Part shown: piece by piece, positions 31,021 to 55,843 of the stretch | How the letters are laid out: each line of letters starts with the position of its first letter | Numbering within the stretch: the first letter of the stretch is position 1 | Source: Candidatus Latescibacterota bacterium | Lineage (GTDB): Bacteria > Latescibacterota > UBA2968 > GCA-2709665 | NCBI GenBank assembly: GCA_965222075.1 | Contig: OZ244937.1 | Location: 2,048,001 to 2,112,000 of the forward strand | Direction: 5' to 3' | Length of the DNA: 64,000 bases | Made by a program: the position numbers and the translations under genes | The notes under the pieces: generated by a model | What the model was told of the DNA's origin: nothing | Seen by the model: only the letters and a program-made list of their open reading frames with translations | The model's database searches: none

Positions 31021-32136
31021 TCACCACTGCCGCGAATCCGGCACCGCCATCCACGCCCCGCCTTCTAAAATCGACTTCTGACTGATCAACCCCGGAAGGG
31101 TCATATCCATCGCCTCGTGGATGCCGATCGGACAGGGCGTCCCGTCCACAATACTCCCCACAAAATCGAGTACCTCAAAGTAGTCCCCTCCGCCGTGCCC
31201 GGCCCTCTTCGCCTCCTCTGGTGGACTGCGCCACATCTCGGGCATATACTCCTCTTCCAGGTCCGCCAGGTCCACCCAGGCGTTCTTATCCTCGTGCAGA
31301 TCGGCCAGCCAGATCCTGTGGTGCTCTCCCCGGCTTCGCGCCGACTCGTAACACCCCCTGGTTCCCTGGAGTGAATAATTCGTCATCGCGTGCGGCCGCT
31401 CCGACAGCATATCCACCCGGATCTTGATCAGCCCCCCCGCCGCCGTCTTGGCCAGCATCACACAGGTGTCCTGGTTCTCGTAAAACGCTTCCCTGGGGTC
31501 CACATAGTGGTGCCCGCTCCCCTCGCAGCAGATACGCACCACCCGGTTGTCTCCCATCCACTGCAGAATCGGTCCCAGGCTGTGCGTCCCATACGTAATC
31601 CCGTCGATTCCCGTCTGCCACGTTCGACGCCACTTTGTCATCTCGTTCAACCCCTTCAACTCGTGGATATACTCCCCCTCCGCATAGTAAACCACCCCGA
31701 ACAGCCCCTGCCGGACCAGTTCCTTTACCAGCACATTCGGCTTCATATAGGTAAAATTTTCCGCCATCATATACACCGCCTTCGACCGCTTCACTGCCGC
31801 CACCAGTGCCCGGCACTCCGCCACAGACACCGCCGCCGTTACCTCGCTCAGCACGTGGATATTTTGATCCAGGGCCAGAATCGCCTGCGGCGCGTGAAAG
31901 TGCATCGGCGTCCCGATGACCACCGCATCCACCTCCGATTGCGCCAGCATCTCCCCATAATCCGTGTACCTCTCCACCGCCCCCAGCTTCTCCGCAGCCT
32001 CCTCAAGCAGCGCCTCCCGGATATCGCACACCGCATGGATCCGCGCCAGCGGGTGCACGTCGAACGCCGCTCGGAAACTCCCCCCTCGTCCAACCGCTCC
32101 CACAACGCCCACGTTCAGCCTCTCCAGAACCCCCAT
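31021..32136 (-). CDS. Gfo/Idh/MocA-family oxidoreductase
   Basis: VGVVGAVGRG Rossmann start, TPMHFHA, VLSEV, YMMAEN, GHGGGDY. Confidence 0.9.
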   Translation of the reverse strand: MGVLERLNVGVVGAVGRGGSFRAAFDVHPLARIHAVCDIREALLEEAAEKLGAVERYTDYGEMLAQSEVDAVVIGTPMHFHAPQAILALDQNIHVLSEVTAAVSVAECRALVAAVKRSKAVYMMAENFTYMKPNVLVKELVRQGLFGVVYYAEGEYIHELKGLNEMTKWRRTWQTGIDGITYGTHSLGPILQWMGDNRVVRICCEGSGHHYVDPREAFYENQDTCVMLAKTAAGGLIKIRVDMLSERPHAMTNYSLQGTRGCYESARSRGEHHRIWLADLHEDKNAWVDLADLEEEYMPEMWRSPPEEAKRAGHGGGDYFEVLDFVGSIVDGTPCPIGIHEAMDMTLPGLISQKSILEGGAWMAVPDSRQW

Positions 32137-32149
32137 GTCGCATCTCCTC

Positions 32150-32521
32150 TCAAACCGCGCGCCAGACCTGCCACACCAGACAGAGCCATCCCCCCAAAAA
32201 GGCCAGCCCCCCCAGCGGGGTTATCGCACCCAGCCAGCGGATGTCGCTCAGGCTCAATGCGTACAGACTTCCCGAAAAGATCACCGTCCCCGCCACAAAC
32301 AGCCACCCGCCCGCAACCCCCACCGACCCCGGCCAGCGAGACATCGCCCAGGCCACCCCCAGCAGGGCCAGGGCGTGATACATCTGGTAGCGCACCCCCA
32401 CCTCGAATACGTTCAACATCTCCGGCTCCAGCCTCTCCTTCAGCCCGTGCGCCCCAAACGCGCCAGCCGCAACACCCACAAATGCCGAAACCGCTCCAAT
32501 GCAGAAAAACACACGGTCCAT
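32150..32521 (-). CDS. DUF423 (YgdD/TMEM256) small membrane protein
   Basis: GAFGAHGL, YQMYHAL, FSGSLY, GAITPLGG. Confidence 0.92.
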   Translation of the reverse strand: MDRVFFCIGAVSAFVGVAAGAFGAHGLKERLEPEMLNVFEVGVRYQMYHALALLGVAWAMSRWPGSVGVAGGWLFVAGTVIFSGSLYALSLSDIRWLGAITPLGGLAFLGGWLCLVWQVWRAV

Positions 32522-32548
32522 ATCTCACCTCCGAAGAAATTGAATATT

Positions 32549-34504
32549 TCAAAAATAGAGACTGTGTCCCTGTCCCTGGAACCAGATCGCATCGATCACG
32601 AAAGAGATCCCCGCCCCCGTAAAGTGTCCCACAACCAGCCCGATAAAAAAAGGTTTCGCCCGCTCGAAAAGAACCAGGCCTCCAAACCGGATAATCAGCA
32701 CCTTCACCATCCAGGTCACAAACAGAGACAGCGCTGTCCACCGGACCTGACCCACCGAAGCAATCGAAAACCCGATCGGATGCAGCCGCCACCAGGTAAA
32801 CCGATGGCGCAAATAGGTCATTACCACCGTGGCCAGCACCCCGATGCCCAGAAAGTGCACCCGGCCGGCCGTAAACTCCTCTGCGGATTTCATCTTGCTC
32901 ACAACCGTATCAAAAGGCACCTGTCCTCCCCGCCGGAACACCCACTCTCCGAAATTGTAGCCCCCCGTACCGTAAGCCAGCTTCAGGGAGAACCAGAAGG
33001 AAATCAGCAGGCTGACCCCCAGCGCCAGCGCAACGGCCGTCACATACGTCCCCCGGGGGAACCGCCGGTCGCTGTGCACCCGGGCCGCATTGGCCCCAAA
33101 CGGCATAAAAATGGCAATCGGATCGCAGGCCCACGCATAGGAAAGCGCCAGCCCCGCCATCGTAGATCCGCTCAGTGTTGCCGGTCCCACCATATGCATG
33201 GGAAAAGCCTGGGGCACCAGCGGCCCTCGAACGAACACCAGCCCCCCCTCAATCACGATCCGGGTCAACCCCAGGTAGAGCGTGACCACCGCAAACAGCA
33301 GCAGGATCGCAACGTGCAGCGCGATTCCAACCGCGTGCAACCAGAGCAGGATATAGACGGCCGCCCCCAGAACCCCGAAAACCGCCGCCCGGTAAGAGAG
33401 GATCTCCCCCGTATCGTCCACGGAGGCATCCTTCCGAAACGCCTTGCGCAGCACATCCCGCAGATGCCCCCGCGCCACCCAGATCCCACCCAGTACAATC
33501 GCCGCAAACGCCCCGAACCCCTGCCAGGCCAGCGCCGAAGGATAGATCGAGTAGGTCTCGGAAGCCCCGATGCTGAACCCCGTCCGGTTGAAAAGCGCGA
33601 TCTCCACCAGATTAAAGAGGTTGAACACCCAGACGCTGAAAATCACGTCCACGTTTACAAAGTACGTAATCCCCATCAGCGGAAAGGAGAAATTCGTTGA
33701 AATACCGGGCAAAAGGTGGCTCCCCGGAATACTCAGCCGGATGGGCGGAATGGCCGGCCATCCGTGGGGGAAAAAGTAGCCCGGGATATTCCAGGCAATC
33801 TTGAACGCCGCCACGCCAAACCCGATCCAGAACAGCCGGCTGCGCATAAACCGGGGCAGCGCCCGCTTATCCTCCGCCCCCTCCATCATCGCCAGGGGCA
33901 CATCCACCAACGGAAAATTGAGACGTTCCACTTCCACCCACTGTTTTCTAAAAATCGCAATCAGGCAGACACAGAGCGTCAACGTGGCCGCAATCAGCGA
34001 TCCCCACCAGAAGAGGGGCACAACCCAGATGTGCCAGGGGATCGACACCCCCGCGGGCAGCCCCTCAAAAAACCAGGCCACCTCGGGCCCACCCCCCGGC
34101 ACGGCCCAGCGGGGGATATGGTGGTGCAGATAGTCCGCCCATCCGTTCTCCGTCGTCGCATAATAAAAAGGCGATGCCGAAACCGAAATCACGTACCCCG
34201 TAATCCCGTACGTGGGCACGGACACCGCCGCCAGCAGCATAATATAGATCACACCCAGTTCATCGCTCCGCAGCCCGAAGCGGCGGCGGACCAGCTTCAA
34301 CAGAGGATTGAGGACAACCACCACCAGGATAAACGAAAAAGCCAGTCCCAGCGGGAAATAGTTCGTCGTCATATAGGTCGAACGCACGACCCACTCGGAG
34401 TAGGGCGCGCTCATCGTCACGGCCACCACCCCGATCAGCCCGACCACCGCAGAACGAAGCGTCAGAATGCGCTTCGTCCGGGGCGCTGCTGCACACAGGG
34501 GCAT
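32549..34504 (-). CDS. Multi-pass membrane protein, DUF6785/DUF6784-type (putative transporter)
   Basis: 651 aa, highly hydrophobic. Motifs PFYYATTEN-W, W-VPLFWW, QWVEVERLNFPL, LSYRAA, WW-LHPIGF are shared with the 57323 paralogue. Confidence 0.75.
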   Translation of the reverse strand: MPLCAAAPRTKRILTLRSAVVGLIGVVAVTMSAPYSEWVVRSTYMTTNYFPLGLAFSFILVVVVLNPLLKLVRRRFGLRSDELGVIYIMLLAAVSVPTYGITGYVISVSASPFYYATTENGWADYLHHHIPRWAVPGGGPEVAWFFEGLPAGVSIPWHIWVVPLFWWGSLIAATLTLCVCLIAIFRKQWVEVERLNFPLVDVPLAMMEGAEDKRALPRFMRSRLFWIGFGVAAFKIAWNIPGYFFPHGWPAIPPIRLSIPGSHLLPGISTNFSFPLMGITYFVNVDVIFSVWVFNLFNLVEIALFNRTGFSIGASETYSIYPSALAWQGFGAFAAIVLGGIWVARGHLRDVLRKAFRKDASVDDTGEILSYRAAVFGVLGAAVYILLWLHAVGIALHVAILLLFAVVTLYLGLTRIVIEGGLVFVRGPLVPQAFPMHMVGPATLSGSTMAGLALSYAWACDPIAIFMPFGANAARVHSDRRFPRGTYVTAVALALGVSLLISFWFSLKLAYGTGGYNFGEWVFRRGGQVPFDTVVSKMKSAEEFTAGRVHFLGIGVLATVVMTYLRHRFTWWRLHPIGFSIASVGQVRWTALSLFVTWMVKVLIIRFGGLVLFERAKPFFIGLVVGHFTGAGISFVIDAIWFQGQGHSLYF

Positions 34505-34507: not shown

Positions 34508-37456
34508 CTAACCCCCTGAAATGGACATCCAGCGGTCCGTGCGCTCAATCTTGTGTTGACCAATGGAAACGGCGTTCGTTGTCCTCACCTGCCATCCCTC
34601 TCCATGCGACCGCAACCACACCCGGCTGGGCAACCTCACCTCCGCCTTTCCCTCCAGGGTCTGGAAAGGCGTGAACAGCTCCTTCAGAACGCCCGATTGC
34701 CGGTCATACGCAAAACCCGGATGGCGGGTACAGTGCAGCAGGGTCCGGCCGCCCGCCGTCTCCACCGCCTCAACCGGAAACGCCCGGTGATGGCTCCCCT
34801 CCTGAGACAGAATAACCGGCTCAGGATCTGTAAACACAAGCGGCTTATTTTCCGGGATATCCGCCCACGTACCATCCAAAACCACGGCAAGCCGGCCCTC
34901 GCCCCGGCTCGTCACCCCTTCCACCGCCAGCGGAGGGCGCGCAGAGACCTGGACCTCCAGCGCGCCATTTTGGAAATACGTACAATCGTAAAGGGACACC
35001 TGCGTGCCTTCCCCGCCGGCAATCACCGTTGCGTACCGCCCCTGCATCCGGGCCACTCCGTCCACCGTGTGCCGCCGGGAAGGATCGGACGCATAGAACA
35101 CCTGCGCTGTCCGTTCGCCGGTCTGTGTAACCGCCCGCACATCCAGCGCCACCACCCCGGCATCGTCCCGCGTTACATGTCGAACCCCAACGACCCTGTC
35201 GGTTCCATACATCGGCTCCCACAGCGCCACAAACCGGCTGCGCAGATCCTCACCCTCGCGGCGCATCACCACCCTGGGCATCCGGAACTTCTCCACCAGC
35301 GAGTGGTCCTCATCGCCCAGAGACTTCTGCCAGCAGCGCCGGATACTCGGCACCGTGCAGGTATAAAGATCCCCCTCCACGGGCTCCAGCATATGCAGAC
35401 GCACACCGGCCATCTCCCGGTCGATGGCTCGAAACTCCGCGCCAAACGGCCCCTCCACCCGACCTTTATGCACGTCTCGAAATACCCCATACCAGGGGTT
35501 CACATCGCGCGGTTTGAGCCCCCGTGCGTGCAGTTCCTTCTCCCATTCGCTGTGGGCCGGCGGCGTAAACGGCTTCCCATCGTCTGCGTAACTCTCGGCG
35601 AAAAACTGCGTCGGAACCGAAACGCTCAGGGTCTGATCCGTAGAACAGCTTCCCTGCGCCATCCACTCGTGAACCTCTCCCCCTTCTACCTGAAAAATAT
35701 CCACCACCACGTTGTCCGCCTCGCCAAGCGGAATCAGAAACAGCGCCCGCTGGTAGGTCCTGCACTGGGGATACGCCATTGCCCCGGAGGCCTCCACTAC
35801 CTGCACCCCGTTCTCAGCCGGGTGCCAGCCTATCAGATCTCCCGCCACGGAAACGCGTTTCTGCGTTTCCCGGTCCACCACCACCAGATTGTGCCCGGAG
35901 GCAACCGTAGCGAACATTCGGTACGTCCACGTATACCCGATATCTGCAATCAGTTCGTCCGTGTACGCCCAGAGCGCAAAATTCAGCATATCGTGGTGGT
36001 CGTGACCCCAGTTGCCCGAATAGTGGAGGTGCGCCTGAATCGGATGGCCCTTCTCCAGCACTCCCCGCCCCAGAACCGCGTGCCCGAACGCAGGGTATAT
36101 CAGCGGCCGCCCGTCCTGGGGGTCCGGGTGCCCGCCTCCCGTGAGCTTGCTGTACGTATCGTGCACCATCATATAGGTACCGTCGGGATAGCCCATCGTA
36201 TCCAGCGTCTCTATTGCACGGTAAAGCTGAGGGAGTTCTGTCCGATTGTCCAGCCCGTCGAACCGCCTGCCGTCGATGCTCGAGGCAAAACCGGGGGGAT
36301 CGGAGTATCCCTCTCCGTACTCTGCCGCCCGCTTTATGCCGTAGATGTGCTGACGGGCATAAGACATACTCTCCGGAAACACGTAATCCGCCATCAGCGT
36401 CTTCAGCACCATCTCCCGGAGCTTCCAGTAGGAATAATGGATCAACTCGGGCATACCCGCGCCCCGTCCGATCAAAATCAGTCCCTGCGCCTGGTAAGGA
36501 ATATAATTGCTCAACGCCTCGTCGGGATGGGAATAGTAAACATCGTACAGAATCGCATCCTGTACCGAATAGAGGAACAGATCCGCCTCGACCACACACC
36601 GGGCATCCCCACCCGCTGCCAGCCGGTCCAGCGCCTCCCACACCGGCGCGTTCACCACAAAATCGTAGCCCTGGGCCAGGTCGCCCACATGCCGGATGCC
36701 CGTGTGGTACTTATCGTACCAGATACCGGCGTACACCGGATATTCCCTAACCGGCCGCAGCCGATCACCTTCCGCAATCCCCGGGCGGCCCCGATGCGTC
36801 TTCGGCCAGTGTGGAACCGCACACCCAAAATCATACAGAATCGCCGCCGCACGCGCCGCATACTGCTCATCTCCCGTTATCCGATACAGCATCCCCAGCG
36901 TCTTCGCCGCCTCGATCAGATAATACACCCGCAGCGAATCCATATACTCTCCATACAGGTAGATCCGCTTCCCGTCGGGCGCGTCGTGATAAGGATATTC
37001 CTGTGTATCCCCCCTGGGGCCGGTAATCTCAATCGTCCCGGTCCGCGGATAAAGCGCAAACGGATCCACCGTGTGTCCTCTGGGGCACCAGATCCGGTCC
37101 GGATCGTCCGGGCGCCACACCAGCCTGGCCTCGTCTCCGGTGGGACACATCGCGATTCGTGTGGTCGGCATCACCCGGCTGTTTCCGGCAATACGATTTC
37201 GCAGCGGCGCCATGCCGATGAGCTCCTCCGGAGCCACCTTCAAATACGGCTCGGCCTTCTTCTTGAGGTCTCCAATTTCCTCACCCGTCAGCGCCTCGGT
37301 CAGATCTGTTAGTTGTGGGTTGCCGCGCATATCCGGCATCTGCACACGCGGGACCGGTCTCAGCGTGTCTACCCACTGCTCGGTCGGATAGAACCCGCCG
37401 TAGTATTCCCGCAACGCTGCGTCCGTCTCAGCCTCAAACTTGCCAAACTTGGACAT
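34508..37456 (-). CDS. Heparinase II/III-like polysaccharide lyase (second subfamily)
   Basis: FPESMSY, WGHDHHDMLNFALW, ADIGY, SGHNLVVVD. Start placed at MSKFG (37456), which matches the paralogue start at 48804 and lies downstream of a promoter. No signal peptide. Confidence 0.85.
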   Translation of the reverse strand: MSKFGKFEAETDAALREYYGGFYPTEQWVDTLRPVPRVQMPDMRGNPQLTDLTEALTGEEIGDLKKKAEPYLKVAPEELIGMAPLRNRIAGNSRVMPTTRIAMCPTGDEARLVWRPDDPDRIWCPRGHTVDPFALYPRTGTIEITGPRGDTQEYPYHDAPDGKRIYLYGEYMDSLRVYYLIEAAKTLGMLYRITGDEQYAARAAAILYDFGCAVPHWPKTHRGRPGIAEGDRLRPVREYPVYAGIWYDKYHTGIRHVGDLAQGYDFVVNAPVWEALDRLAAGGDARCVVEADLFLYSVQDAILYDVYYSHPDEALSNYIPYQAQGLILIGRGAGMPELIHYSYWKLREMVLKTLMADYVFPESMSYARQHIYGIKRAAEYGEGYSDPPGFASSIDGRRFDGLDNRTELPQLYRAIETLDTMGYPDGTYMMVHDTYSKLTGGGHPDPQDGRPLIYPAFGHAVLGRGVLEKGHPIQAHLHYSGNWGHDHHDMLNFALWAYTDELIADIGYTWTYRMFATVASGHNLVVVDRETQKRVSVAGDLIGWHPAENGVQVVEASGAMAYPQCRTYQRALFLIPLGEADNVVVDIFQVEGGEVHEWMAQGSCSTDQTLSVSVPTQFFAESYADDGKPFTPPAHSEWEKELHARGLKPRDVNPWYGVFRDVHKGRVEGPFGAEFRAIDREMAGVRLHMLEPVEGDLYTCTVPSIRRCWQKSLGDEDHSLVEKFRMPRVVMRREGEDLRSRFVALWEPMYGTDRVVGVRHVTRDDAGVVALDVRAVTQTGERTAQVFYASDPSRRHTVDGVARMQGRYATVIAGGEGTQVSLYDCTYFQNGALEVQVSARPPLAVEGVTSRGEGRLAVVLDGTWADIPENKPLVFTDPEPVILSQEGSHHRAFPVEAVETAGGRTLLHCTRHPGFAYDRQSGVLKELFTPFQTLEGKAEVRLPSRVWLRSHGEGWQVRTTNAVSIGQHKIERTDRWMSISGG

Positions 37457-37500
37457 AAGGTTTATCCCCCCGTAAGCGCAAGGGTTGTACTTTGCTCGTA

Positions 37501-37530
37501 AGCATAATCCCCCGGACCGGGGGTTGTCAA
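37501..37530 (-). promoter_or_regulatory. Sigma-70 promoter of the lyase/DUF6785 operon
   Basis: Minus strand TTGACA (37530-37525), 18 bp spacer containing the palindrome CCCCCGG-A-CCGGGGG, TATGCT (37506-37501). Repeated at 61939-61968. Confidence 0.55.
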
Positions 37531-37651
37531 GCGCAATCGGCTCCCTCTGCTTCGGCAGGGACCTGCACATTCGCTGGATTTTTCAAAAGAGGAAGAGTAT
37601 ATTGGTTTTCGGATATGGATCTGGTAATGTACGGTTCTGGAGGTACTGACC

Positions 37652-40600
37652 ATGCAACCATCCGACACAACCCGGCTTCGAGCCTCCGCGCCTGCGCTCG
37701 CCCGGCTGTCCTTTTGGGTGCCCCCGGAACGGATGGCCGAATTTGAGATGGCCTACGTGGAGAAAGTGGCTCCCATTCTGGAACGCCTCGGCCTGGTGGC
37801 ATCCTCTTGTCAGGCCCGAACGGCCCTGGAGGGGATCTTCAGCCGGCTGTTCGAGATACAAACACCATCTCATATAGCAGAAATAGAGACAGCGCTTCAG
37901 AGAGACGGAAATTGGCAGGAAACGGTGCAGAGTCTCTCAACGGCCTTTACAGCAGACGGCATACCGGACGTGTTTCGGCACCGCCTCGGAATTTACAGTG
38001 CCCCTGCAGGACCTGGCAGGGTGGTGCCTGCTGGATGCGGTCGGGGGCACTGGCGAACCTACGATGGAGTGGACGGATTGCCGGAAAACCATGTGCGGGC
38101 AGTCCTCCAGGATCGGGACGGAAACCTCTGGTTCGGCACCGAAGTCGGGGCCTGCCGATATGACGGTCGAACCTGGGCTACGTTCGCTATGCAGGACGGT
38201 CTGGGAGACAATTATGTGCAGGCGATTTTCCAGGATCGAGACGGACAGCTCTGGTTCGGCACCAGAGGCGGCGTGAGTTGTTATGACGGACAGACATTTA
38301 CCTCCTTCACGGTTCAGGATGGCCTGGCCGACAACAGTGTGTTTTCAATCCTTCAGGACCGGGAGGGAACCCTCTGGTTCGGCACCGGCAGTTTTCGCGC
38401 CGATGGCCGTGGTGTAAGTCGGTATAACGAACAGGGCTTTACTACTTTTTCCGCACAAGATGGTCTGACGGACGACACGGTGCTTTCGATTTTTCAGGAT
38501 CGGGAGGGGCGCCTCTGGTTTGGTACGAACGGCGGTGTAAATCGATATGACGGTCGAAGCTTTGCCGCTTTTTCCGCACAAGATGGTCTGGCGGGTGACA
38601 CGGTGCTTTCGATTTTTCAGGATCGGGAGGAGCGCCTCTGGTTTGGTACGAACGGCGGTGTAAGTCGATATGACGGACGATGTTTTATCACCTTCACAAC
38701 GGACGATGGGCTGGCGGAGAATGTGGTGCGGTCAATCTACCAGGACCAGGAGGGAATCCTCTGGTTCTGTACCCAAGGCGGTGTGAGCCGCTACGATGGA
38801 CAGAAATTCACGACCTTTACTTCTCAGAACGGCCTGGCCGACAATGTGGTGCGGTCGGTCTGCCAGGATCGGGAGGGGCACCTCTGGTTCGGCACGATGG
38901 GCGGCGGTGTCAGCCGATATGACGGGCAGCGGTTTATCACCTTTACAACAGACGATGGCCTGGCGGGCAATTGGGTGCGATCGATCCTTCAGGACCGGGA
39001 GGGGCGCCTCTGGTTCGGCATCTGCGGGGGCGGTGTGTGCCGTTATGATGGAGAGACCTTTTCTACCTTTTCCACACAAGACGGACTGTTAGACGTGGAC
39101 GTGCGGTTGATTTTTCAGGATCGGGAGGGGCACGTCTGGGTCGGCACTGAATACGGTTTGAGCCGGTATGATGGAGAGGCCTGGACCAGTTTCACGCCTG
39201 AAGATGGACTGCCCGAAAACCCGGTTTTTTCGATCTTTCAAGACCGGGAGGGGAGTCTCTGGATCGGCACGATATCCGGTGTGAGCCGGTATGATGGACG
39301 GCGTTTTACGAGCTTTACAACGGATGATGGATTGATCGATAACCATGTAAGGTCGATCTTCCAGGGCCGGGAGGGGGACCTCTTAATCGGTACAATATCC
39401 GGTGTGAGCCGGTATGATGGACGGCATTTTACGAGTTTTACAGCGGGTGATGGACTGATCGATAACAATGTAAGGTCGATCTTCCAGGACCGGGAGGGAG
39501 ACCTCTGGTTCGGGACCATGGGCGGCGGTGTGAGCCGGTATGACGGACAGGCCTGGACCACCTTTACCACGGGTGACGGGCTGGCGCACAACGTGGTGAC
39601 ATCGATCTTTCAGGACCGTGAAGGGCATCTCTGGTTTGGCACGGATGGCGGTGTGAGCCGGTACGATGGACAGGTCTTCCAGACGCTGACCGACCGGGAT
39701 GGTCTGCCGAGCAATTCGATGTGGTCGATCTTCCAGGATCGGGATGGATATATCTGGATCGGCACCGTCAACGGTGTGACGCGCTATCATCCCCCCGCGC
39801 CGTCGCCTCCTTCAGCGTTCATCGACGGGGTGGTGGCCGATCAACGCTATGAAGGGACAACCGCGCTTGAGATTCCCTCCAGCGTGCGGCTGACCGCCTT
39901 TGAGTTTCACGGGATCAGCTTTAAGACCCGTCCGGAGGCAGTGGTCTATCAATATCGGCTGGAGGGGTATGAAGCAGGCTGGAAGACGACAGATAGCGGC
40001 CGGGCGGAATACCAGGACCTGCCGCCGGGCGATTATACCTTTCATGTGAGGGCCATAGATCGAGATCTGAACTACTCCGATCCTGCGACTGTACGGTTAG
40101 CCGTTGTGCTGGACCCACGAATTCAGGCATTGACCGAGGCCCTGAGCGAGAGTGGGGCATCGAGTGAGTTTGTGGGGAAGAGCGATGCGCTGCACCGGGT
40201 GCAGACGCAGCTTTCGGAGATCGCCCAGACGGATGTGACGGTGTTGATTTTGGGAGAGACCGGAACGGGCAAGGGGCTGGCCGCCCGGGCGGTACACGCA
40301 CTGAGCAATCGAAAAATGGGGCCGTTTATACAGGTGAACTGCGGGGCGATTCCGGAAGGGTTGGTGGAAAGCGAACTGTTCGGACACGAAAAGGGGGCGT
40401 TTACGGGTGCGGATACCCGCAAGCTGGGGAAGGTAGAGCTGGCGAAGGGGGGAACGCTATTGTTAGATGAGATCGGGGATCTGGCCCGGGACACCCAGGT
40501 GAAGCTGTTGCAGCTTTTAGAGGAGCGGACCTTCTATCGGGTGGGAGGCACGCAGTCCCTGCAGGTCGAGGTGCGCGTAATCACAGCAACCAACCGGGAT

Positions 40601-41101: not shown

Positions 41102-41214
41102 CGCTATATATCACGCAATGCGCTATATATCACGCAGCATTCTTTTTTTATAATTAACTGTAAATAAATAAAATATAAAATTTATGGAGAAATTGTTAAG
41201 CGATATATCGCGCA
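41101..41214. promoter_or_regulatory. Putative upstream activator sequences
   Basis: Exact 17 bp direct repeat GCGCTATATATCACGCA at 41101 and 41120. Related perfect palindrome GCGATATATCGC at 41200-41211. AT-rich spacers between them. Confidence 0.7.
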
Positions 41215-41333
41215 TTCGCAATACTGTTCAAAGACTCTAAACATAGATATAACCTGAAATAATAAATAAAATTAGATATAAGACCGTTATAAACAGCCAC
41301 CTGAAGCTATATGCGTCAGATGGCTGTTTTTTC

Positions 41334-41350
41334 TTGGCACAGATTTTGCT
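41334..41350 (+). promoter_or_regulatory. Sigma-54 (-24/-12) promoter
   Basis: TTGGCAC-AGATT-TTGCT matches the TGGCAC-N5-TTGC(A/T) consensus. Confidence 0.9.
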
Positions 41351-45020: not shown

Positions 45021-45029
45021 CAGATGCCG

Positions 45030-47551: not shown

Positions 47552-48538
47552 GTGAAACAGCTTAGATTCACGATACTGCTCGCCGCGATGGGGGTGCTCC
47601 TGTTTGCGCCTCCCGGCGACGCGGTTATCAAGGATGAAGTCGAGCGGCTCTTTGGCACACAAAAGTGGCTCGGCCTGGCCGGGTTTCAGTTCCTCAAGAT
47701 CGGGCAGGGTGCCCGGCCCGTGGCCATGGGCGATGCCTATACGGCCGTGGCGGACGATATCAACGCGATCTTCTGGAATCCGGCGGGGCTGACGGCCATC
47801 CGGGGCACGGCCTGGACGGCCTCCTACACGAAGTGGCTGGTGGACTCCTACCTCTACTCCGCGGCGGTGGCCTGGAACACGGGCACGGCCAGGGGCGGGG
47901 TGCTGGGCGGCAGCGTGGTGGCCTTGAGGTTCCCGCATATCGAGGAAACAACGACCTTCCAGCCGCAAGGTACGGGTGCCGGTGTGTCCACCGGGGATGT
48001 GGCCATCGGCGTGGTCTACGCGCTGAAGCTGACGGACAAATTTTCGTTCGCCTCCCGGGTGTCGTGGGTCAGCCAGACCCTCCATACCGAAAGCGTCAGC
48101 ACCATCAGTGTGGACGTGGGCACGCTCTTCTATACGGGCTTTAAGAGCCTGCGTCTGGCCATGGCGCTGAAGAACTACGGCCCGGACAAGAAGATTGTGG
48201 AGAACAAATTCTTCATGCCCCTTTATTACCACGTAGCTGCGGCAGGGGAGATCTACGGGGAGAAGGGAGACCCCGCTTATCTGACCGTGTCGGGGGAATC
48301 CGCGTTTGCGGCGGACTACGAGCTGCGCGCGCACCTGGGGGCCGAGATGTGGTTTCAGAACATGGTTGCCCTGCGGGCAGGCTACAAGTTCAACTACGAC
48401 ACGGATACCTACAGTGCAGGGGTAGGCCTGAACTACGAAATCGCCGGTGACCGGGCAGTGACGGTGGACCTCTCCTACACGGATATGGGCAGGTACTTCG
48501 ACGGTCCCATACGGGTGACGGTTGGGGGGATGTTTTAG
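47552..48538 (+). CDS. PorV/PorQ-family (UPF0164) outer-membrane beta-barrel
   Basis: Signal peptide, FLKIGQGARPVAMGDAYTAVADDINAIFWNPAGL, LRAGY, terminal Phe. Confidence 0.88.
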   Translation: MKQLRFTILLAAMGVLLFAPPGDAVIKDEVERLFGTQKWLGLAGFQFLKIGQGARPVAMGDAYTAVADDINAIFWNPAGLTAIRGTAWTASYTKWLVDSYLYSAAVAWNTGTARGGVLGGSVVALRFPHIEETTTFQPQGTGAGVSTGDVAIGVVYALKLTDKFSFASRVSWVSQTLHTESVSTISVDVGTLFYTGFKSLRLAMALKNYGPDKKIVENKFFMPLYYHVAAAGEIYGEKGDPAYLTVSGESAFAADYELRAHLGAEMWFQNMVALRAGYKFNYDTDTYSAGVGLNYEIAGDRAVTVDLSYTDMGRYFDGPIRVTVGGMF

Positions 48539-48803
48539 GGAAAAAGACGGCGCCTTAGAGAGGGGATGGAGACCGGAACCGATCTCCTGGACTTGAGCCT
48601 GCCGTTGGGCAGATTTGCACCCCCGTCTTTTTGACTTTGGATGGGGGTGCACCTATTTTTCCCGGAACGTCTACATCATTTATGTGGCCTGCGTGGAAAG
48701 TCTGGTACAGGCCGCAAAGCTGCTCGGAGACTTCGGTCGAGGAGCGGCTGGCCATCTACGTTGGCGAAGGCCGCGGCGTTGCGTGTTGGGAAGGAACTGT
48801 TTC

Positions 48804-51800
48804 ATGTCCAAGTTTGGCGTGTTTATCCCGAAATCCGCTCGGTCGAAAGCACCCACCTCGACGGGCTCACCCGGCCCTCCTGCGCTGGACGCCACATCGG
48901 GCCTGAGTTCCGACCGGCTCTCGGAGAGACCCTTTTCACAGGCAGACCTGGAACGATACTACGGGGGATTTTTCCCCACGCCGGAGTGGACCAACGCCCT
49001 CCAGCCCGTGCCGCGCGACCGTCGCGCCAACCCTCAGTTGACGGACATATTGATCAAGCCGCTTACCCAGGATCAAATCGAGCGCCTGAAACAGGACGCC
49101 GAACCCTACCTGCGTGTCTCGCCGAATGACCTGATCGGAATGGCCCCGGTGCGCAACCGCATCGCAGGCAACGCCCGCGTGATGCCCTCCACGCGAATCG
49201 CCCGGTGTCCCGACGGCGACGGCGAAACGCTCACCTGGCGGCCCGACGACCCGGATAAGATCTGGTGTCCGCAGGGCCACACAGTAGACCCCTTCGCACG
49301 CTACCCCCAGACCGGCAGCATCCGGATCACGGGTCCCAAAGGGGACGAGCAGGACTACCCCTACCACGACGCGCCGGATGGAAAGCGGATCTACCTCTAC
49401 GGCGAGTTTATGGATTCGCTGCGCGTGTACTATCTGATCGAAGCCTCAAAAACCCTGGGAATGCTGTACCACCTCACCGGCGACATTGCATACGCCGAAC
49501 GCGCTGCGGCCATCCTCCACGGCTTCGCCCGCGCGGTGCCCCACTGGCCCAAGACCCATCGGGGGCTTCCGGGAATTGCGGAAGAAGACCGGCTTTGCCC
49601 GGTAACCGAATTTTCCGATTGCGCCGGAATCTGGTACGACAGATACCACACGGGCACGATACACCTCAGCATACTTGGGGAAGCGTACGACTTCATTGTC
49701 AATGCCCACGTCTGGGAACCGCTGGACAGCTCGGCGCCCGGCAAAGACACACGGGTCTGGATCGAGAACGACCTCTTTCTTTACTGCGTGAAAGACGCGA
49801 TCCGGTACGACATCCAGTACCCCCATCCCGACGCCGCCCTGAGCAATTATATACCCTCCCAGGCCGCAGGCTTTACCCTCATCGGGCGGGGCGTGGGCAT
49901 TCCCGAACTGGTCCACTACGCCTACTGGAAGCTCAAACAACTGGCCGAAAAGACGATCATGGCCGACTACGTATTCCCCGAGAGCATGTCCTACGGATCC
50001 ATGCACATCCACGGTATCGCCAGCGCCTCGGAAAAAGGGCAGGGATACGCCGATCCGCCCGGCTTTGTTTCGAGTATCGACGGCGGGCGGTTCGACAGCT
50101 TAGATAACGAGCAGGAACTCCCCGTTCTCCAGCGGGCGGTCGATACCCTGGCGACGATGGTCTATCCGGACGGCAACTACATCCAGGCCCACGATACCCA
50201 CCACACCATGAGGCGGAGGAAGGATGTTACTCCCGGGGAGACCCGGCCGTCCAACCTGGCCCCCAAAAAGACACGACCGCTGATCTATCCCGCTTTCGGA
50301 CATGCCTTTTTAGCAAGGGGGGAAGCAGAGAAAGGAAACCAGATCCAGGCCCACCTCCACTACTCGGGCAACTGGGGACACGACCACGACGACATGCTCA
50401 ACACCATCCTCTGGTCGTACAGCGAAGAGATGATATCCGACATCGGCTACCAGCTCACGTACGCCGGCTTCTCCAAAATCGCCGCCGGACACAACTTAGT
50501 GGTTGTAGACCGTAACACCCAGGCCAGAGTATCTTTGCCGGGGCGCCTGCTCGGGTGGCATCCGGCGGAGAATGGGGTGCAGGTGGTTGAGGCCTCGGCG
50601 CCGGAGGTCTACCCTCAGTGCAGCACGTACCGCCGGACATTATTCCTCATTCCCATTGGCGAAATGGACAACCTGGTCCTGGACATCTTCGACGTGGAAG
50701 GCGGCAGCATCCACGAATGGATGGCCCAGGGAAGCTGCATGGTCGAGCAGGCCCTGGACGTCCCGGTTCCCACCCGGTACCATGCGGACAGCTATGCGGA
50801 CGACGGGGTGCCCTTCACCCCGCCTGCCCACCGCGAATGGGAAAAGCAGCTGCACGCCCAGGGGCTCAAACCGCGCGATGTGAACCCCTGGTACGGCGTG
50901 TTTCGAAACGTCCACAAAGGACGTGTGGAAGGGCCGTTTACGGCCACCTTTCGCGCTGAGAACCCGGACATGCCCGATGTACGCCTGCACATGCTCCTGC
51001 CCACAGACGGCGACCTCTACACCTGCACCGTGCCCACCCTTCGACAGTGCTGGAGCAACGCCCTGCAAATAGAAGACCATTCCCTGGTGGAAAAATTCCG
51101 AATGCCCAAGCTCGTCATTCGACGCGAGGGAGAAAATCTGCGCAGCCGGTTTGTTGGATTGTGGGAACCCGCACGCGGCTCCATGGTCGTCAAAGAGGTG
51201 AAAAATCTCGCCCCCGGGCACTCCGAACTCGTGGCCGTAGAAATTCGTACCACCGGCGGGCACACGGTTCAACTTTTCTATTCGTCCGACCCTTCAAAGC
51301 GCCACGAGATCAGCAATGGAATGGAGTTTCAGGGCCGCTATGCGTCGGTCATCTCCCAAAACGAGAGCAAGCAGATAACACTTTACGACTGCGCATCCTT
51401 CCATAACGGCGACCTGGAACTGGCCCTGTCGCCTCGCCCGCCCCTGCCGGTGGAAGAAGTGCGCGAACAGGAGGGAGACAACGCCCTGCTGGTCCTGAAT
51501 GGCGTGTGGACGGACATACCCGAAGACCGCCCGCTTCAATTTGAAGAGCCCGAGCTGGTCATTCTGACTCAAAACGGCGGCCACCAGAGGGCCTTCCCCA
51601 TCCAGGCGGTGGAGAGAGAGGGCAGCAAGACCCTGCTGCGGTGCAGCCGCCATCCGGGATTTGATTACGACCGCGAATCGGGCGTACTCAGAGAGATCAC
51701 CACGCCGTTTCAGGTCGTGGAAGGCAGGGCGGAGGTGACGCTGCCCAACCGTACGTGGGTTCGCTCGCGTGTGGCTCGGCCCGACGTGTGGAAGGTCCGG

Positions 51801-51890
51801 TCGACGAACGCAGTCAGCATCGGCGCACACCGGGTTGAATGGAGCGGCAACTGGATAACTGTTGGGCGGAAGTGTTCCGAGGAATCATGA
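48804..51890 (+). CDS. Heparinase II/III-like polysaccharide lyase (paralogue of 34508-37456)
   Basis: Shares long identical peptides with the 34508 gene (YPYHDAPDGKRIYLYGE, QAHLHYSGNWGHDH, GLKPRDVNPWYGVFR). ATG 48804 follows GAAGGA. Confidence 0.85.
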   Translation: MSKFGVFIPKSARSKAPTSTGSPGPPALDATSGLSSDRLSERPFSQADLERYYGGFFPTPEWTNALQPVPRDRRANPQLTDILIKPLTQDQIERLKQDAEPYLRVSPNDLIGMAPVRNRIAGNARVMPSTRIARCPDGDGETLTWRPDDPDKIWCPQGHTVDPFARYPQTGSIRITGPKGDEQDYPYHDAPDGKRIYLYGEFMDSLRVYYLIEASKTLGMLYHLTGDIAYAERAAAILHGFARAVPHWPKTHRGLPGIAEEDRLCPVTEFSDCAGIWYDRYHTGTIHLSILGEAYDFIVNAHVWEPLDSSAPGKDTRVWIENDLFLYCVKDAIRYDIQYPHPDAALSNYIPSQAAGFTLIGRGVGIPELVHYAYWKLKQLAEKTIMADYVFPESMSYGSMHIHGIASASEKGQGYADPPGFVSSIDGGRFDSLDNEQELPVLQRAVDTLATMVYPDGNYIQAHDTHHTMRRRKDVTPGETRPSNLAPKKTRPLIYPAFGHAFLARGEAEKGNQIQAHLHYSGNWGHDHDDMLNTILWSYSEEMISDIGYQLTYAGFSKIAAGHNLVVVDRNTQARVSLPGRLLGWHPAENGVQVVEASAPEVYPQCSTYRRTLFLIPIGEMDNLVLDIFDVEGGSIHEWMAQGSCMVEQALDVPVPTRYHADSYADDGVPFTPPAHREWEKQLHAQGLKPRDVNPWYGVFRNVHKGRVEGPFTATFRAENPDMPDVRLHMLLPTDGDLYTCTVPTLRQCWSNALQIEDHSLVEKFRMPKLVIRREGENLRSRFVGLWEPARGSMVVKEVKNLAPGHSELVAVEIRTTGGHTVQLFYSSDPSKRHEISNGMEFQGRYASVISQNESKQITLYDCASFHNGDLELALSPRPPLPVEEVREQEGDNALLVLNGVWTDIPEDRPLQFEEPELVILTQNGGHQRAFPIQAVEREGSKTLLRCSRHPGFDYDRESGVLREITTPFQVVEGRAEVTLPNRTWVRSRVARPDVWKVRSTNAVSIGAHRVEWSGNWITVGRKCSEES

Positions 51891-51947: not shown

Positions 51948-54314
51948 ATGGAGCTTGCCGTCACAGACGGAATCTACTCGAAGGACAACTACGAACCGAG
52001 TCTCTGCGCCCTGTCGAACGGCCGGGCGTGCTGGATGGCGTGGGCGGCCTACGAGAGGGATGGGTCCAGGGCTTTTGTGCGACGGTTCGACGGAGAGGAT
52101 GCAGGGGAAGTGACGCCGATTTCTCCCAGCAAGAGGATGCAGACGAGGCCGATTTGTGTGCCGATGGATACGGGGGTACGGTTCGTCTGGTTCGAGAAGG
52201 AGGGGCAGACCTATTCCATCTGGAGCCGTGAACACGGGGGGGATGCGTTTACCGGGTGCGAGGAGCTGGCTGTGTTGCCGGAGTCGGCGAAGCCGTGGGA
52301 GCTGCAGGCGCTCTGCGATGAGAGCGGGACCCTTTGGGTAACCTGGGCGCAGTCCGTTAAGAATAACAGCAGCATCGAGGTTTTCGGGTTTCTACAGGGG
52401 AGTGAGCCGGTGCACTTCTCGTTGGGAAATGAGAGCCGATACAATTATCGACCCAGAATGGTTGCGTGGAAAGCAGAGGGAATCTATCTGATCTGGGACA
52501 GTTATGTGGATGAGGCGTACGACATTTACGGCTGTCCCGTGCTGCCGTCCGGCCCTTCGGAGGTGGTGAAGATCAGTTGCGATGCTGCGTGGGAGAACAA
52601 GTCGGCCATCTGCCGGGATCGGGACGGTGCGCTCTGGGCGGTGTGGGTGCGGTGGCAGGATGTGATGTATCGCCAGAGTACGATTCAGCAGAAGTTTTCG
52701 GTTCGAGGGGCACGGCTTGAGGGCGATTCGTGGGAACCTCTGTTGGGCGCGGACGGGGGATCGGACATTGCGCCGCTCCATTACGGGTTGCTGACCGATT
52801 TTCCGCGCCTGCCCAATCTGGGACATATAGGCAGGCGGCTTTTTCCGATTCTGAAGGGGGCCGAAGACGGCGGAGTCTGGCTCTTTTACGAGGTGAAGGC
52901 GGACCAGGATCACCATACGCTTCTTTCAAAAGGGCGGATGTTTGCCCATCGGTGCGTCGATGGGACCTGGTCGGGGCCTTACACTGTGAGGGAGGGTCGC
53001 GTTTTCTACGAGTTGCCCCACAATAACTCCCTCAGCACCGGGACCTTCCTGATCTCACGGGACTTCGATTCCGATGAGCTTTACCTGGAAAAAGTCGATC
53101 TGTCGGCGGATTTTCCGGTTGTCCCGGAGGAGAAGCGCAGCGTCAATTTGGAGCAATGGGAGGAGATCCGACTGCCGTTCAAGGAGCGACGAGAAACAGA
53201 CAGGGCTTCCAACGAATTGCCCGGCGAAACAAATGGAAAGTACCAACTTTTCTGGGCAGACCTGCACTGCCACTCGGCGGTGTCGATCGAGATGGAGGGA
53301 GAGCCGGACGAGCTGGGACACTTTGCGCGGGACAAGGCGCAGATCGACGCGCTGACAGTGTCTGACAACGACAATTTCTGGGACCGGTTCAGACGCAATC
53401 AGGTACGCCATCTGAAGGATTACGAGTGGGACTACGTGAAGGGCAACGCCCTTCTGCTCAATGAGCCGGGGCGGTTTGCGATGTTTCCAGGCTACGAGAT
53501 GGGGACTGGTGGCGACAACAGCAAACCGGGCGCGAAGTGGAAGCACAACCACCGCTCGGTGATGTCGGACGACGACGAGATGGAGATGGATCTGCTCAAC
53601 TTCAAGTACATAGACGCCTATATGAGAGAAGAGCGGGAGACCCACAAGGAGATCCAGGAGTGCATTGCCTGGTGCAGGGAAAGGGAATACCTCCCGCTGC
53701 CTCATCCACACGACGGACACTGGAATCTGGTTGATACGGACGTGGAATGGGGCATCGACGTGTGCGCCGCCTGGATGATCAATATGGATCTTTTCGATAT
53801 CTACTTCAAGTATCTGGACGCAGGCCACAAATTCGCATTCACCGGCAGCGGAGACAGCCATCACCGGAACCCCGGATTGAGCGGCGCCATCACCGGAATC
53901 TGGGCCGACAGGCTGGATCGCGCCTCCCTCCTTGAAGCCATCAAGGCGCGGCGCTGCTTCGCCACTGCTGGGCAACGAATCCTCATCGAATTCACCATCA
54001 ACGACCACATGATGGGCAGCTCGCTGGTGATGGAGGAAGACCCCGTGCTCAAGTGGCGGGTCGTGGGCGAAGAAAACCAGGACTACATCCTGCGCATCCA
54101 CCGGGACGGGCGCCTGATGCACGAAGACCGGTTCGTCGGACAGACCCGGGGAGAACTGGAAGAATACCGGCTGTGCCAGTATCGTCCGGGAAAGCACTAC
54201 TACTACCTCGAAGTCCTCTCCCCCGATCCGATTCCCCAGTATCCGGCCAACGTTGCGCATGCCCTGGGCGCAAAGGGATGGAGTACCCCGATCTGGATCG
54301 AGACAACGAATTGA
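51948..54314 (+). CDS. PHP-like / DUF3604-type metallohydrolase with N-terminal beta-rich domain
   Basis: WADLHCHS, PGYE, HNHR, PHPH, GSGDSH, LLEAIKARRCFAT. Confidence 0.75.
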   Translation: MELAVTDGIYSKDNYEPSLCALSNGRACWMAWAAYERDGSRAFVRRFDGEDAGEVTPISPSKRMQTRPICVPMDTGVRFVWFEKEGQTYSIWSREHGGDAFTGCEELAVLPESAKPWELQALCDESGTLWVTWAQSVKNNSSIEVFGFLQGSEPVHFSLGNESRYNYRPRMVAWKAEGIYLIWDSYVDEAYDIYGCPVLPSGPSEVVKISCDAAWENKSAICRDRDGALWAVWVRWQDVMYRQSTIQQKFSVRGARLEGDSWEPLLGADGGSDIAPLHYGLLTDFPRLPNLGHIGRRLFPILKGAEDGGVWLFYEVKADQDHHTLLSKGRMFAHRCVDGTWSGPYTVREGRVFYELPHNNSLSTGTFLISRDFDSDELYLEKVDLSADFPVVPEEKRSVNLEQWEEIRLPFKERRETDRASNELPGETNGKYQLFWADLHCHSAVSIEMEGEPDELGHFARDKAQIDALTVSDNDNFWDRFRRNQVRHLKDYEWDYVKGNALLLNEPGRFAMFPGYEMGTGGDNSKPGAKWKHNHRSVMSDDDEMEMDLLNFKYIDAYMREERETHKEIQECIAWCREREYLPLPHPHDGHWNLVDTDVEWGIDVCAAWMINMDLFDIYFKYLDAGHKFAFTGSGDSHHRNPGLSGAITGIWADRLDRASLLEAIKARRCFATAGQRILIEFTINDHMMGSSLVMEEDPVLKWRVVGEENQDYILRIHRDGRLMHEDRFVGQTRGELEEYRLCQYRPGKHYYYLEVLSPDPIPQYPANVAHALGAKGWSTPIWIETTN

Positions 54315-54333
54315 CCCCAGACTTACCCCGATT

Positions 54334-54424
54334 GAGTTCCGAGTTCCACCTCACCTCCACACCACCCCTGTTCCGAGTTCCGAGTTAAAACCTGAAGCAT
54401 CGGGAGAAGCGTGGAACTCGGAAC
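54334..54424. repeat. Heptamer (GTTCCGA) tandem and inverted repeat cluster
   Basis: GAGTTCCGAGTTCC at 54334, GTTCCGAGTTCCGAGTT at 54370, inverted GGAACTCGGAAC at 54413-54424. Confidence 0.65.
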
Positions 54425-54484
54425 TTCTGTAAACCAATATCAGGCGAAAGGGAATAGCAAACAGGGAGTCCGGAGGATATCGCT

Positions 54485-55843
54485 ATGAGTGCTGAATTCC
54501 AGGCGGGAGCCGCAACGGCCAATATTACCCCCTGCCTGGGGACTTCGATCCCGGGGAGTTTTCAGCCCCGGTTTGCGGAGGACGTGCACGACGAGCTGCT
54601 GGCAAAAGCTCTGGTGATTGACAACGGTGACACGCGTCTGGCGATGGTGACGTGCGACCTGGTGGTTGTGACGCAAAAGATGGTGGATGCGGCCAAGGCG
54701 CGGATTGCAGAGCGGTGTGAGATCCCGCCCGAGCATGTGATGGTGAACGCGACGCATACGCACACCGGCCCGGGGGTGGTAGACCTAGTGATTATCGAGG
54801 AGGATCGGGAGTATACCGCGTGGGCGCCGTTGAAGATTGCGGACGCAGTGGAGCTGGCGGTGCAACGGCTGCGCCCGGCGCGGATCGGCTTTGCCAGCGT
54901 GGAAGAGGGCCGGATCGCGTTTCACCGGAGGTGGCATATGAAAGACGGCACGGTCCGGATGAATCCGGGGGCCAACAATCCGGATCTGGTCCGGCCGGCT
55001 GGACCGATCGATCCGGAGCTTGCGATGATATACGTGGAGGGAACGGACGGGACGCCGATTTCGGCAGTGGCCAATTTTTCACTCCATTACGTGGGTACAG
55101 ACAACCGGCAGGCGATTTCGGCGGACTATTTCGGTCACTTCTTCCGGCTGATGCGGCATTACCTGGGGGCCAATTGTGTGCCGATGCTGTGGAATGCGGC
55201 TTCGGGACAGATCAACAATATCGATTACAGCGGGCGCACGGCGTGGAAAGACCGGGGCCATCGGCAGGCGGTGAGGATGGCGAACGTGCTGGCGGGGCAC
55301 ATGATTACGGAGATCCAGTTGATGGAGATGCACGAGACGCTGGAACTGGCGGGAATGGTGGACACATTTGAGTTTCCGCGCAAAGGGATTACGGCAGGCG
55401 ATCTGGAGGTGGCGGAGAAGGTGCTTGCCGTGCCCGAGGGGACGTATGAGGATTACGAGACCGGTCCGTTTAGCTGGGTGGTGGGCCAGCCGATCCCCAA
55501 GAACCTATTGCACGCCTACGCCCTCCAGTGCCGGCACATGGCTGACCTGCCGGAAAAAATGACCGCGCCCGTACAGGTCTTGAAGCTGGGGAAGGCGGCG
55601 ATCGTGGCCCTGCCGGGTGAGGTGTTCGTCGAGACTGGACTCAGCATCAAATCCCAGGCATCCGCCGCGCCGCTGTTCCTGGTAAGCCTGGCCAACGGGT
55701 ATATCGGATATATCTGTACGGACACGGCGCTTACGGAACAAGGAGGGTATGAGACGTGGGCGGGGACATGGTCCCTGGGGGGCGTGGAAACGGAGCCGGC
55801 GATGGAAAATACGGCGCTTTCTCTTTTAGGTGAACTGGAGTAG
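54485..55843 (+). CDS. Neutral/alkaline ceramidase-like metal-dependent hydrolase
   Basis: VHDELLAKAL, NATHTHTGP, NFSLHY, SADYFG, LPGEVF, LANGYIGY, GGYE. Confidence 0.8.
   Translation: MSAEFQAGAATANITPCLGTSIPGSFQPRFAEDVHDELLAKALVIDNGDTRLAMVTCDLVVVTQKMVDAAKARIAERCEIPPEHVMVNATHTHTGPGVVDLVIIEEDREYTAWAPLKIADAVELAVQRLRPARIGFASVEEGRIAFHRRWHMKDGTVRMNPGANNPDLVRPAGPIDPELAMIYVEGTDGTPISAVANFSLHYVGTDNRQAISADYFGHFFRLMRHYLGANCVPMLWNAASGQINNIDYSGRTAWKDRGHRQAVRMANVLAGHMITEIQLMEMHETLELAGMVDTFEFPRKGITAGDLEVAEKVLAVPEGTYEDYETGPFSWVVGQPIPKNLLHAYALQCRHMADLPEKMTAPVQVLKLGKAAIVALPGEVFVETGLSIKSQASAAPLFLVSLANGYIGYICTDTALTEQGGYETWAGTWSLGGVETEPAMENTALSLLGELE

Follow-up and report, generated by a model that had tools for sequence, protein, structure and literature searches.

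A candidate three-gene outer-membrane uptake module, SusC/SusD-like in working, in a Latescibacterota genome

Introduction

The prediction of glycan-utilisation loci usually starts from SusC/SusD pairs, and loci of Latescibacterota, Marinisomatota and KSB1 would therefore be missed or undercounted. In the alginate locus of Rhodothermus marinus the printed gene order is tonB-hypA-hypB, where hypA (2,181 nt) encodes a protein with a type IX secretion system (T9SS) type A sorting domain and hypB a member of the PorV/PorQ family; both genes lie beside PL6, PL17 and PL39 lyases and, in the description of that locus, are annotated only as hypothetical (PMC9530828). The tail-bearing protein PorZ is kept at the cell surface by an outer-membrane barrel of its own, PorQ (PMC10947112), and PorP/SprF barrels hold type B cargo (PMC9143113). 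Other papers mention Latescibacteria lyases and TonB receptors without SusD (PMC4454575) and discuss sponge symbionts and glycosaminoglycan use (PMC8163846). The present work concerns a 64,000-nt stretch of Latescibacterota contig OZ244937.1 (the window), from a host genome of 5.36 Mb and 97.6% completeness, and in particular a trio of genes encoding, in this order, a TonB-dependent receptor, a secreted partner of about 800 amino acids (aa) and a PorV/PorQ-family barrel.

With a probability of about 0.58, the trio is read here as a three-gene outer-membrane uptake module that is SusC/SusD-like in its working and serves, at this locus, the breakdown of a uronate glycan. It is a real and apparently undescribed uptake architecture of the utilisation-locus kind: searches of the open literature gave no paper that treats the trio as a system, and PMC13543919, a review on transporters of glycosides from 2026, contains no mention of PorV, T9SS, Latescibacter or Marinimicrobia. 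An earlier sequence-only reading had assigned the whole 25-kb region around the trio to one SusD-less, sigma-54-controlled glycan-utilisation system. The genes that it named were all located by Pfam and NCBIfam scans of the window open reading frames (ORFs) (Table 1). The trio is the conserved core of the locus, and the 25-kb region is not one conserved unit.

Results

Copies, order and distribution of the trio

BLAST searches with each of the three proteins found 20 trios in the host genome, always adjacent and invariant in order. Related loci were retrieved with the partner-protein alignment alone, and all counts out of 78 refer to the best 78 of 171 confirmed stretches. The receptor-partner-barrel order was kept in 71 of these loci and the partner-barrel order in 76, the exceptions being mainly contig ends or a second, free-standing partner. 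The loci belong for the most part to Candidatus Latescibacterota, with Marinisomatota and KSB1 records among them. In the phylum of the KSB1 genome, matches were present in 21 of 31 genomes and the order was kept in 18 of 20 fetched loci; one of the remaining two has a swapped order and the other is a partner-only array. Moreover, the partner protein was found in 39 of 40 relatives, usually in several copies. The proposal of a widely conserved SusD-less core, composed of a TonB receptor, a C-terminal-domain (CTD) protein and a PorV-like barrel, agrees with these counts. Trees of the three genes, built from 18 of the 20 paralogous sets (the frameshifted set of the window and a set with a split partner were omitted), share their main clades (rho 0.51-0.66, 0/2000 permutations), a signal that adjacency alone can also yield.

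A small OMP_b-brl barrel is encoded directly 5' of the receptor in seven of the host's 20 trios (L011, L017, L018, L022, L025-L027) and in 56 of the 78 related loci; it is possibly a fourth core part, though it is missing at the window locus. Several partner genes per receptor were observed in the KSB1-group loci L146, L147 and L154, and one KSB1-group array holds six partner genes with neither receptor nor barrel within 19 kb.

SusD and the receptor

Searches with the SusD models PF07980 and PF14322 gave no match in the host genome, and matches in a control genome. In Pfam and NCBIfam scans of the called window ORFs, no SusD, kinase, ECF sigma factor or ABC transporter was detected, as the sequence-only reading had stated.

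The receptor is characterized by a CarboxypepD_reg N-terminal domain and a Plug domain (Pfam). Its intact, 90%-identical paralogue is modelled as a plug within a 22-strand barrel (predicted local distance difference test, pLDDT, 85.6; strands counted from the model), and in Foldseek this model matched Cir, PirA and the SusC protein BT1763 at E~1e-24, siderophore receptors and SusC being about equal. The TIGR04056 SusC/RagA model reached 66 bits against a cut-off of 368, over residues 32-228 only, in the 907-aa frameshifted ORF. TonB is present in the host genome. The receptor ORF is broken near 44491-44494, and a frame-restoring indel was found at full depth in four of four sequencing runs over the break. 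Therefore, the frameshift is probably a consensus error of the assembly, and the possibility that the receptor is a pseudogene was rejected. The partner gene at L021:10715-13119, which is split in the host genome and intact in a 97%-identical orthologue of the relative G001, probably reflects another such error.

The secreted partner

The mature partner was modelled by AlphaFold with a pLDDT of 91.4 and a predicted template modelling score (pTM) of 0.92. Its layout comprises a signal peptide, a mutarotase-like beta-supersandwich, an Fn3-like domain and a C-terminal beta-sandwich. Residues 3-557 match galactose-mutarotase-like supersandwiches (Z 18.8, root-mean-square deviation (rmsd) 3.2, 254 residues aligned; Z 18.6, rmsd 3.4, 242 aligned). 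The top matches are domains of a glucan synthase and a glucoamylase, and the catalytic (alpha/alpha)6 helical barrel found in those enzymes does not follow the partner supersandwich. The predicted fold is typical of carbohydrate-active proteins. Across 138 homologous sequences no acidic residue of the supersandwich is conserved, and the conserved positions are Gly, Pro and aromatic residues, chiefly in the Fn3 domain and the tail. The signal peptide lacks a lipobox, a loose pattern of which occurs in four of 130 homologues.

Residues 722-794 gave a weak NCBIfam T9SS-family match (E 0.015), and the partner model a weak Foldseek match to PorZ (E 1.1e-4, rmsd 5.8). Por_Secre_tail is annotated on 17% of the members of the partner's Atlas cluster, and some partner homologues carry a T9SS-cargo name at NCBI. 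The sequence evidence suggests that the tail is a variant T9SS C-terminal domain and not a standard type A signal. The partner profile had no match among sequences of solved structures (best E 0.35), and the fold-match lists, which exclude nothing, contained no SusD row. The family comprises 1,934 clusters at 50% identity (E<=1e-10) and is unnamed.

The barrel and the type IX machinery

The trio barrel scored 168 bits with the PorV/PorQ family model NF033709 (cut-off 90) and stayed below the equivalog cut-offs of NF033710 (61 vs 250 bits) and NF033711 (70 vs 220 bits). Its profile matches the solved PorV structure 6h3i (E 1e-21). Besides the trio barrels, the host genome encodes three further PorV-like proteins, and the SprA translocon and PorU sortase are present.

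Lyases, DUF6785 and other cargo

The two lyases of the locus lack signal peptides and belong to a family of about 30 paralogues in the genome. A profile of 21 paralogues matched PL17 (E 2e-37), ulvan lyase (6e-28), heparinase III (3e-12) and then a chondroitinase. The aligned His-x-His-x-Asp and Tyr positions are kept, and the catalytic His/Tyr set is only partly conserved. Thus the cytoplasmic anionic-glycan lyases proposed earlier were upheld as to their clan (PL17/heparinase II-III) and the lack of signal peptides, and not as a system-defining part, since the family occurs within 8 kb in two of the 78 related loci. In the closest trio subfamily, lyases accompany ceramidase-like genes and sulfatases in the host genome (L020 region, behind GntR), in the relative G004 and in L033; PHP-like and DUF6785 genes are found in the L020 region and the G004 loci as well. 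Such gene content speaks for a role of the subfamily in the use of uronate glycans. Two further tandem heparinase II/III-like paralogues lie at window 5101-11585, the first split by a frameshift (5101-7422 / 7007-8209).

Roughly 12 hydrophobic segments were counted in DUF6785, which has 49 BLAST rows in the genome. As many as 23 of 46 copies lie within 20 kb of a trio against 5.0 expected (maximum 11 in 300 draws), an enrichment that could be inflated by the concentration of trios in one part of the chromosome. DUF6785 is also present in 35 of the 78 related loci, and its suggested linkage to the core was supported. PF03169 (OPT) is annotated on 11% of the members of its Atlas cluster; no Pfam OPT match was obtained for 29 of 29 members, and there was no match to a Protein Data Bank sequence. 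A relationship of DUF6785 to OPT is a lead only. A literature search found no paper on DUF6785.

Stand-alone homocysteine S-methyltransferase-like genes (window 59573-60607; L012, L013, L020; 21 BLAST rows in the genome) often lie inside trio loci, where their products perhaps demethylate imported substrates. Many trios (L014, L016, L017, L018, L022-L025, L028, L029) are flanked by genes for TPR proteins of 820-1310 aa, some with GWxTD, and such genes occur in 23 of the 78 related loci. The ceramidase-like hydrolase has 18 BLAST rows in the genome, itself included.

The activator-STAS cassette

The activator combines 13 Reg_prop repeats and Y_Y_Y with a sigma-54 AAA+ domain and HTH_8 (Pfam); Walker A lies at 868, GAFTGA at 915 and Walker B at 939. 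Neither a membrane segment nor a kinase, receiver or AraC domain was detected in it by Pfam and hydrophobicity analysis. In its family of at least 120 clusters, a hydrophobicity scan found a membrane helix or signal peptide in 0 of 120 homologues, in agreement with the solubility claimed previously. Because the propeller is fused directly to the activator and no membrane helix is present, sensing would have to take place in the cytoplasm. The N-terminal domain (window 37688-38059, ~125 aa) has no Pfam match and was seen again in the relative G004, on as many as 11 proteins that differ in length; none of these lies near the five partner positions examined there, of up to 10 matches. Searches for literature on propeller-type sigma-54 activators (titles and abstract openings) found none describing this protein.

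Downstream of the activator, two identical 17-nt repeats lie at 41101 and 41120, with a related copy, also inverted-complementary, at 41198. Within the genome, the 17-nt repeat and the related copy occur only at this locus and its duplicate, and they may form an enhancer bound by the activator. A strict scan of the 5.36-Mb genome gave 10 matches to the sigma-54 motif, this one included; ~0.0003 would be expected in the 280-nt gap, and rpoN is present in the genome. The promoter and enhancer-like repeats noted in the sequence-only reading were thus confirmed as a rare genome-wide motif and locus-specific repeats.

A defining role of sigma-54 control and STAS, also claimed there, did not survive the comparison of loci, and the cassette was rejected as a defining part of the system. 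The sigma-54 motif precedes two of 20 trios, which are the 92%-identical duplicate pair, and propeller and STAS are found in 0 of the 78 related loci. The genes directly 5' of the other 18 receptors encode the small barrel (7), LacI (2), DUF6785 (2), GntR (1), unknown proteins (3) and a CTD protein, a deacetylase and a cupin (1 each). With this STAS as query, no match was obtained in 40 of 40 relatives. Of the modules expected to co-occur, the neighbourhood check retained the trio, and neither propeller and STAS nor the lyases. The activator-repeats-promoter-STAS layout recurs without a trio in L166, where STAS likewise follows a propeller activator, and a degraded third cassette at L128:6485-9440 contains a truncated activator, different repeats, a sigma-54-like motif and a broken STAS. 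Therefore, the cassette is regarded as a portable switch. Among 67 metagenome loci found with the activator, propeller plus AAA+ occurred in two and the trio partner or barrel in none, a weak test.

The sigma-54 transcript most likely comprises STAS, receptor, partner and barrel genes, because a hairpin lies 3' of the barrel gene and a sigma-70-type match precedes the left operon. The hairpin is strong on folding, yet it was not called by the terminator scan, and may represent the end of this transcript. The sigma-70-type match is weak alone, as the region has 12 such sites against 6.7 expected. On the minus strand at the left operon no strict sigma-54 motif was found, and the sigma-54 control formerly assigned to this operon is not supported. 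RNA-library contigs span STAS to PorV in two of two RNA runs, both of one study and chosen for containing this stretch. The activator and the left operon are not covered by RNA contigs, and cover is low past the barrel gene; since the contigs were selected on the trio, neither observation carries weight.

Organization of the locus and its surroundings

The features of the locus are collected in Table 1. The region 36494-48659 is duplicated with 92% nucleotide identity; the copy begins at ~60900 of the window and extends beyond its end. The duplicate (window 60911-64000 and locus L019) contains the activator, repeats, promoter, STAS, trio and a truncated copy of the left lyase, and in L019 two lyases and one DUF6785 gene come after the trio. 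ORFs at window 23880-26335 and 56010-56870 are taken to be transposase-like (IS200-like and others); 24803-26335 and 56010-56870 have no Pfam match. An ordinary TetR regulator and three-part resistance-nodulation-division efflux pump occupy window 11740-18222. The stretch is contained in four sponge metatranscriptome runs from one study, and the host bacterium appears to be sponge-dwelling.

Table 1. Positions of genes and predicted regulatory elements in the window.
Feature	Position	Strand	Evidence
Gfo/Idh/MocA oxidoreductase, GH109-like C-terminal domain	31021..32136	-	Pfam, NCBIfam
DUF423 small membrane protein, single genome copy	32150..32521	-	Pfam, BLAST
DUF6785/DUF6784 polytopic membrane protein, candidate inner-membrane importer	32549..34504	-	Pfam
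PL17-like lyase paralogue, left operon gene 1, 63% identical to right lyase	34508..37456	-	Pfam, BLAST, profile
Sigma-70-type promoter match (10/12), 5' of left operon	37501..37530	-	Motif scan
Soluble sigma-54 activator: ~130-aa N-domain, Reg_prop, Y_Y_Y, AAA+, HTH	37652..41101	+	Pfam
Enhancer-like repeats: identical pair of 17-mers plus a related copy	41101..41216		Repeat search
Sigma-54 -24/-12 promoter motif	41334..41350	+	Strict genome motif scan
Small STAS-domain protein, in activator cassette	41382..41651	+	Pfam
TonB-dependent receptor, trio gene 1 (ORFs 41816-44539 and 44310-45020)	41816..45020	+	Pfam, model
802-aa secreted partner, trio gene 2	45122..47530	+	AlphaFold; no Pfam match
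PorV/PorQ-family outer-membrane barrel, trio gene 3	47552..48538	+	NF033709
Strong hairpin, then T-rich tract, 3' of PorV-like gene	48616..48651	+	Folding
PL17-like (heparinase II/III clan) lyase without signal peptide	48804..51890	+	Pfam, profile
PHP-like (CehA/McbA, DUF3604) metallohydrolase	51948..54314	+	62 bits, below cut-off 80
Neutral-ceramidase-like hydrolase	54485..55843	+	Pfam, NCBIfam

Discussion

In the proposed mechanism, the 802-aa partner would leave the cell via Sec and the SprA translocon, which is encoded in the genome, through its variant C-terminal domain. The co-encoded PorV/PorQ-family barrel would collect the partner and retain it at the surface, by analogy with PorQ-PorZ. 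There the predicted beta-supersandwich would bind substrate beside the TonB-dependent receptor, which would import it, and the linked DUF6785 membrane protein would move fragments into the cytoplasm. At this locus, the signal-less PL17-like lyases and accessory hydrolases would degrade a glycan containing uronic acid. The portable cassette, made up of the soluble propeller activator, the enhancer, the sigma-54 promoter and STAS, would drive the trio here and in the recent duplicate, and the soluble propeller would sense the products in the cytoplasm; other trios lie behind LacI, GntR or no visible regulator. A more far-reaching version, with the odds somewhat against it, is put forward tentatively. 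The trio would belong to a second, unrecognised utilisome in several Fibrobacteres-Chlorobi-Bacteroidetes (FCB) group phyla, in which a type IX-exported beta-supersandwich lid, permanent on its own PorV-family barrel, caps the TonB receptor, perhaps with a fourth small barrel, and feeds an OPT-fold importer and cytoplasmic lyases, possibly by means of a motor-less SprA. At this locus, the products would be read by a cytoplasmic Bacteroides-type sensor fused to a sigma-54 activator.

Several results weigh against the interpretation of the trio as a SusC/SusD-like uptake module for a uronate glycan. SusD is scarce and not absent across the lineage: 26 of 121 phylum genomes, though none of 17 in the host family, have one SusD-like match each, and four of five other trio-bearing genomes have one SusD-like gene. 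A shared fold alone establishes no function for the partner. TIGR04183 finds no trio-partner tail, its 16 matches in the genome all lying elsewhere. GldM and GldN had no match in the host genome, and no control genome matched either; SprA and PorU without such matches may point to a motor-less type IX system. A free-standing partner gene (L099) and partner-only arrays (L147) exist, and therefore receptor-partner-barrel pairing is not obligatory. The cargo of many trios is not clearly glycan-related and includes homocysteine-methyltransferase-like, PhyH, aminotransferase and peptidase genes. The lyases are not enriched near trios genome-wide (6/30 against 3.2 expected) and were rejected as general trio cargo. 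The clustering of trios on the chromosome, mentioned with the DUF6785 test, has the same bearing.

The one-to-one occurrence of a barrel in 20 of 20 trios, despite three other PorV-like genes in the genome, speaks against the barrel being an export shuttle only, with a PorU-processed partner that is attached to the surface or released and makes no lasting contact with barrel or receptor. This explanation draws on the PorU-type sortase, the homology of the trio barrel to the shuttle PorV and the KSB1-group loci L146, L147 and L154, with several partners per barrel or no barrel nearby; it is considered improbable, though it is the strongest of the alternatives, as the ordinary type A cargo of this genome forms a separate set and the published dedicated barrels PorQ, PorP and SprF retain their cargo. 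The partner might instead be a surface enzyme, of the epimerase- or lyase-type supersandwich kind, or an adhesin, with a receptor that acts by itself, like those of SusD-less loci in proteobacteria. The fold is shared by aldose epimerases (Z 12-13) and a GH174 fucanase (Z 14.0), and several acidic residues are kept among paralogues. This is a less likely account than the shuttle, because the positions conserved across homologues are of the structural types described above and lie mostly outside the supersandwich, the best fold matches are to supersandwich domains at the N-terminus of larger enzymes, and a single enzyme family is improbable for 20 loci with differing cargo. Such N-terminal domains are non-catalytic.

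As to substrate, the locus could import something other than an anionic glycan, e.g. a modified host metabolite, with the lyase-like proteins acting on an unusual compound. No solved member is close to the lyases (single-sequence E 0.047), the scanned window ORFs yielded no recognisable gene of uronate catabolism, and the ceramidase-like, PHP-like and methyltransferase-like genes are hard to account for. The lyase profile, however, has matches solely among lyases of uronate glycans (PL17, ulvan, heparinase III, further alginate and chondroitin lyases), His-x-His-x-Asp and Tyr are kept at the aligned positions and sister loci are accompanied by sulfatases, which makes this alternative unlikely, slightly more so than a surface enzyme. 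The lowest probability is given to the whole 25-kb region, in both directions, being a single sigma-54 regulon and a conserved system for anionic glycans. Every part of it is present, the activator is soluble, and the duplicate retains activator, STAS, trio, lyases and DUF6785; nevertheless, the cassette is confined to the duplicate pair among the trios and absent from the related loci, the nearest paralogous lyase-bearing trio lies behind GntR, L166 has the cassette but no trio, L128 has it in degraded form, and the region is interrupted by the strong hairpin between the barrel gene and the lyase and by the sigma-70-type match at the left operon.

If the trio is equivalent to SusC/SusD, it can serve as a marker for mapping the diet of uncultured sponge, marine and sediment bacteria. 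Moreover, the type IX machinery would gain a role in assembling nutrient-uptake complexes, and a large unnamed partner family would gain a function. As the cultured Rhodothermus marinus has the same printed gene order, the idea is directly testable.

Summarizing, the trio resembles SusC/SusD (RagA/RagB) polysaccharide utilisation loci in that a CarboxypepD-type TonB receptor is paired with a surface protein, the pair recurs many times in a genome, its catabolic cargo varies and its regulators are local; at this locus glycan-degrading enzymes are co-located. It differs from them in its non-lipoprotein, mostly beta partner, its PorV-family barrel as third gene, a receptor far below the SusC cut-off and no SusD, regulation by LacI, GntR or a soluble activator of the sigma-54 type, and, here, lyases without signal peptides. 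The activator itself shares a GAFTGA AAA+ domain with HTH, upstream repeats and a -24/-12 promoter with the one-component activators FhlA, NifA and XylR, and Reg_prop and Y_Y_Y with the Bacteroides hybrid two-component sensor; unlike these regulators, it has the propeller fused directly to the activator, without membrane helix, kinase or receiver. With the PorQ-PorZ and PorP types, the trio has in common an own outer-membrane barrel for a tail-bearing surface protein, whereas in the trio this pair goes with a TonB receptor and is present 20 times, the barrel is neither equivalog and the tail is not recognised by the type A model. The alginate locus of Rhodothermus marinus has the same printed gene order and differs from the present locus in having exported lyases and Kdg catabolic genes.

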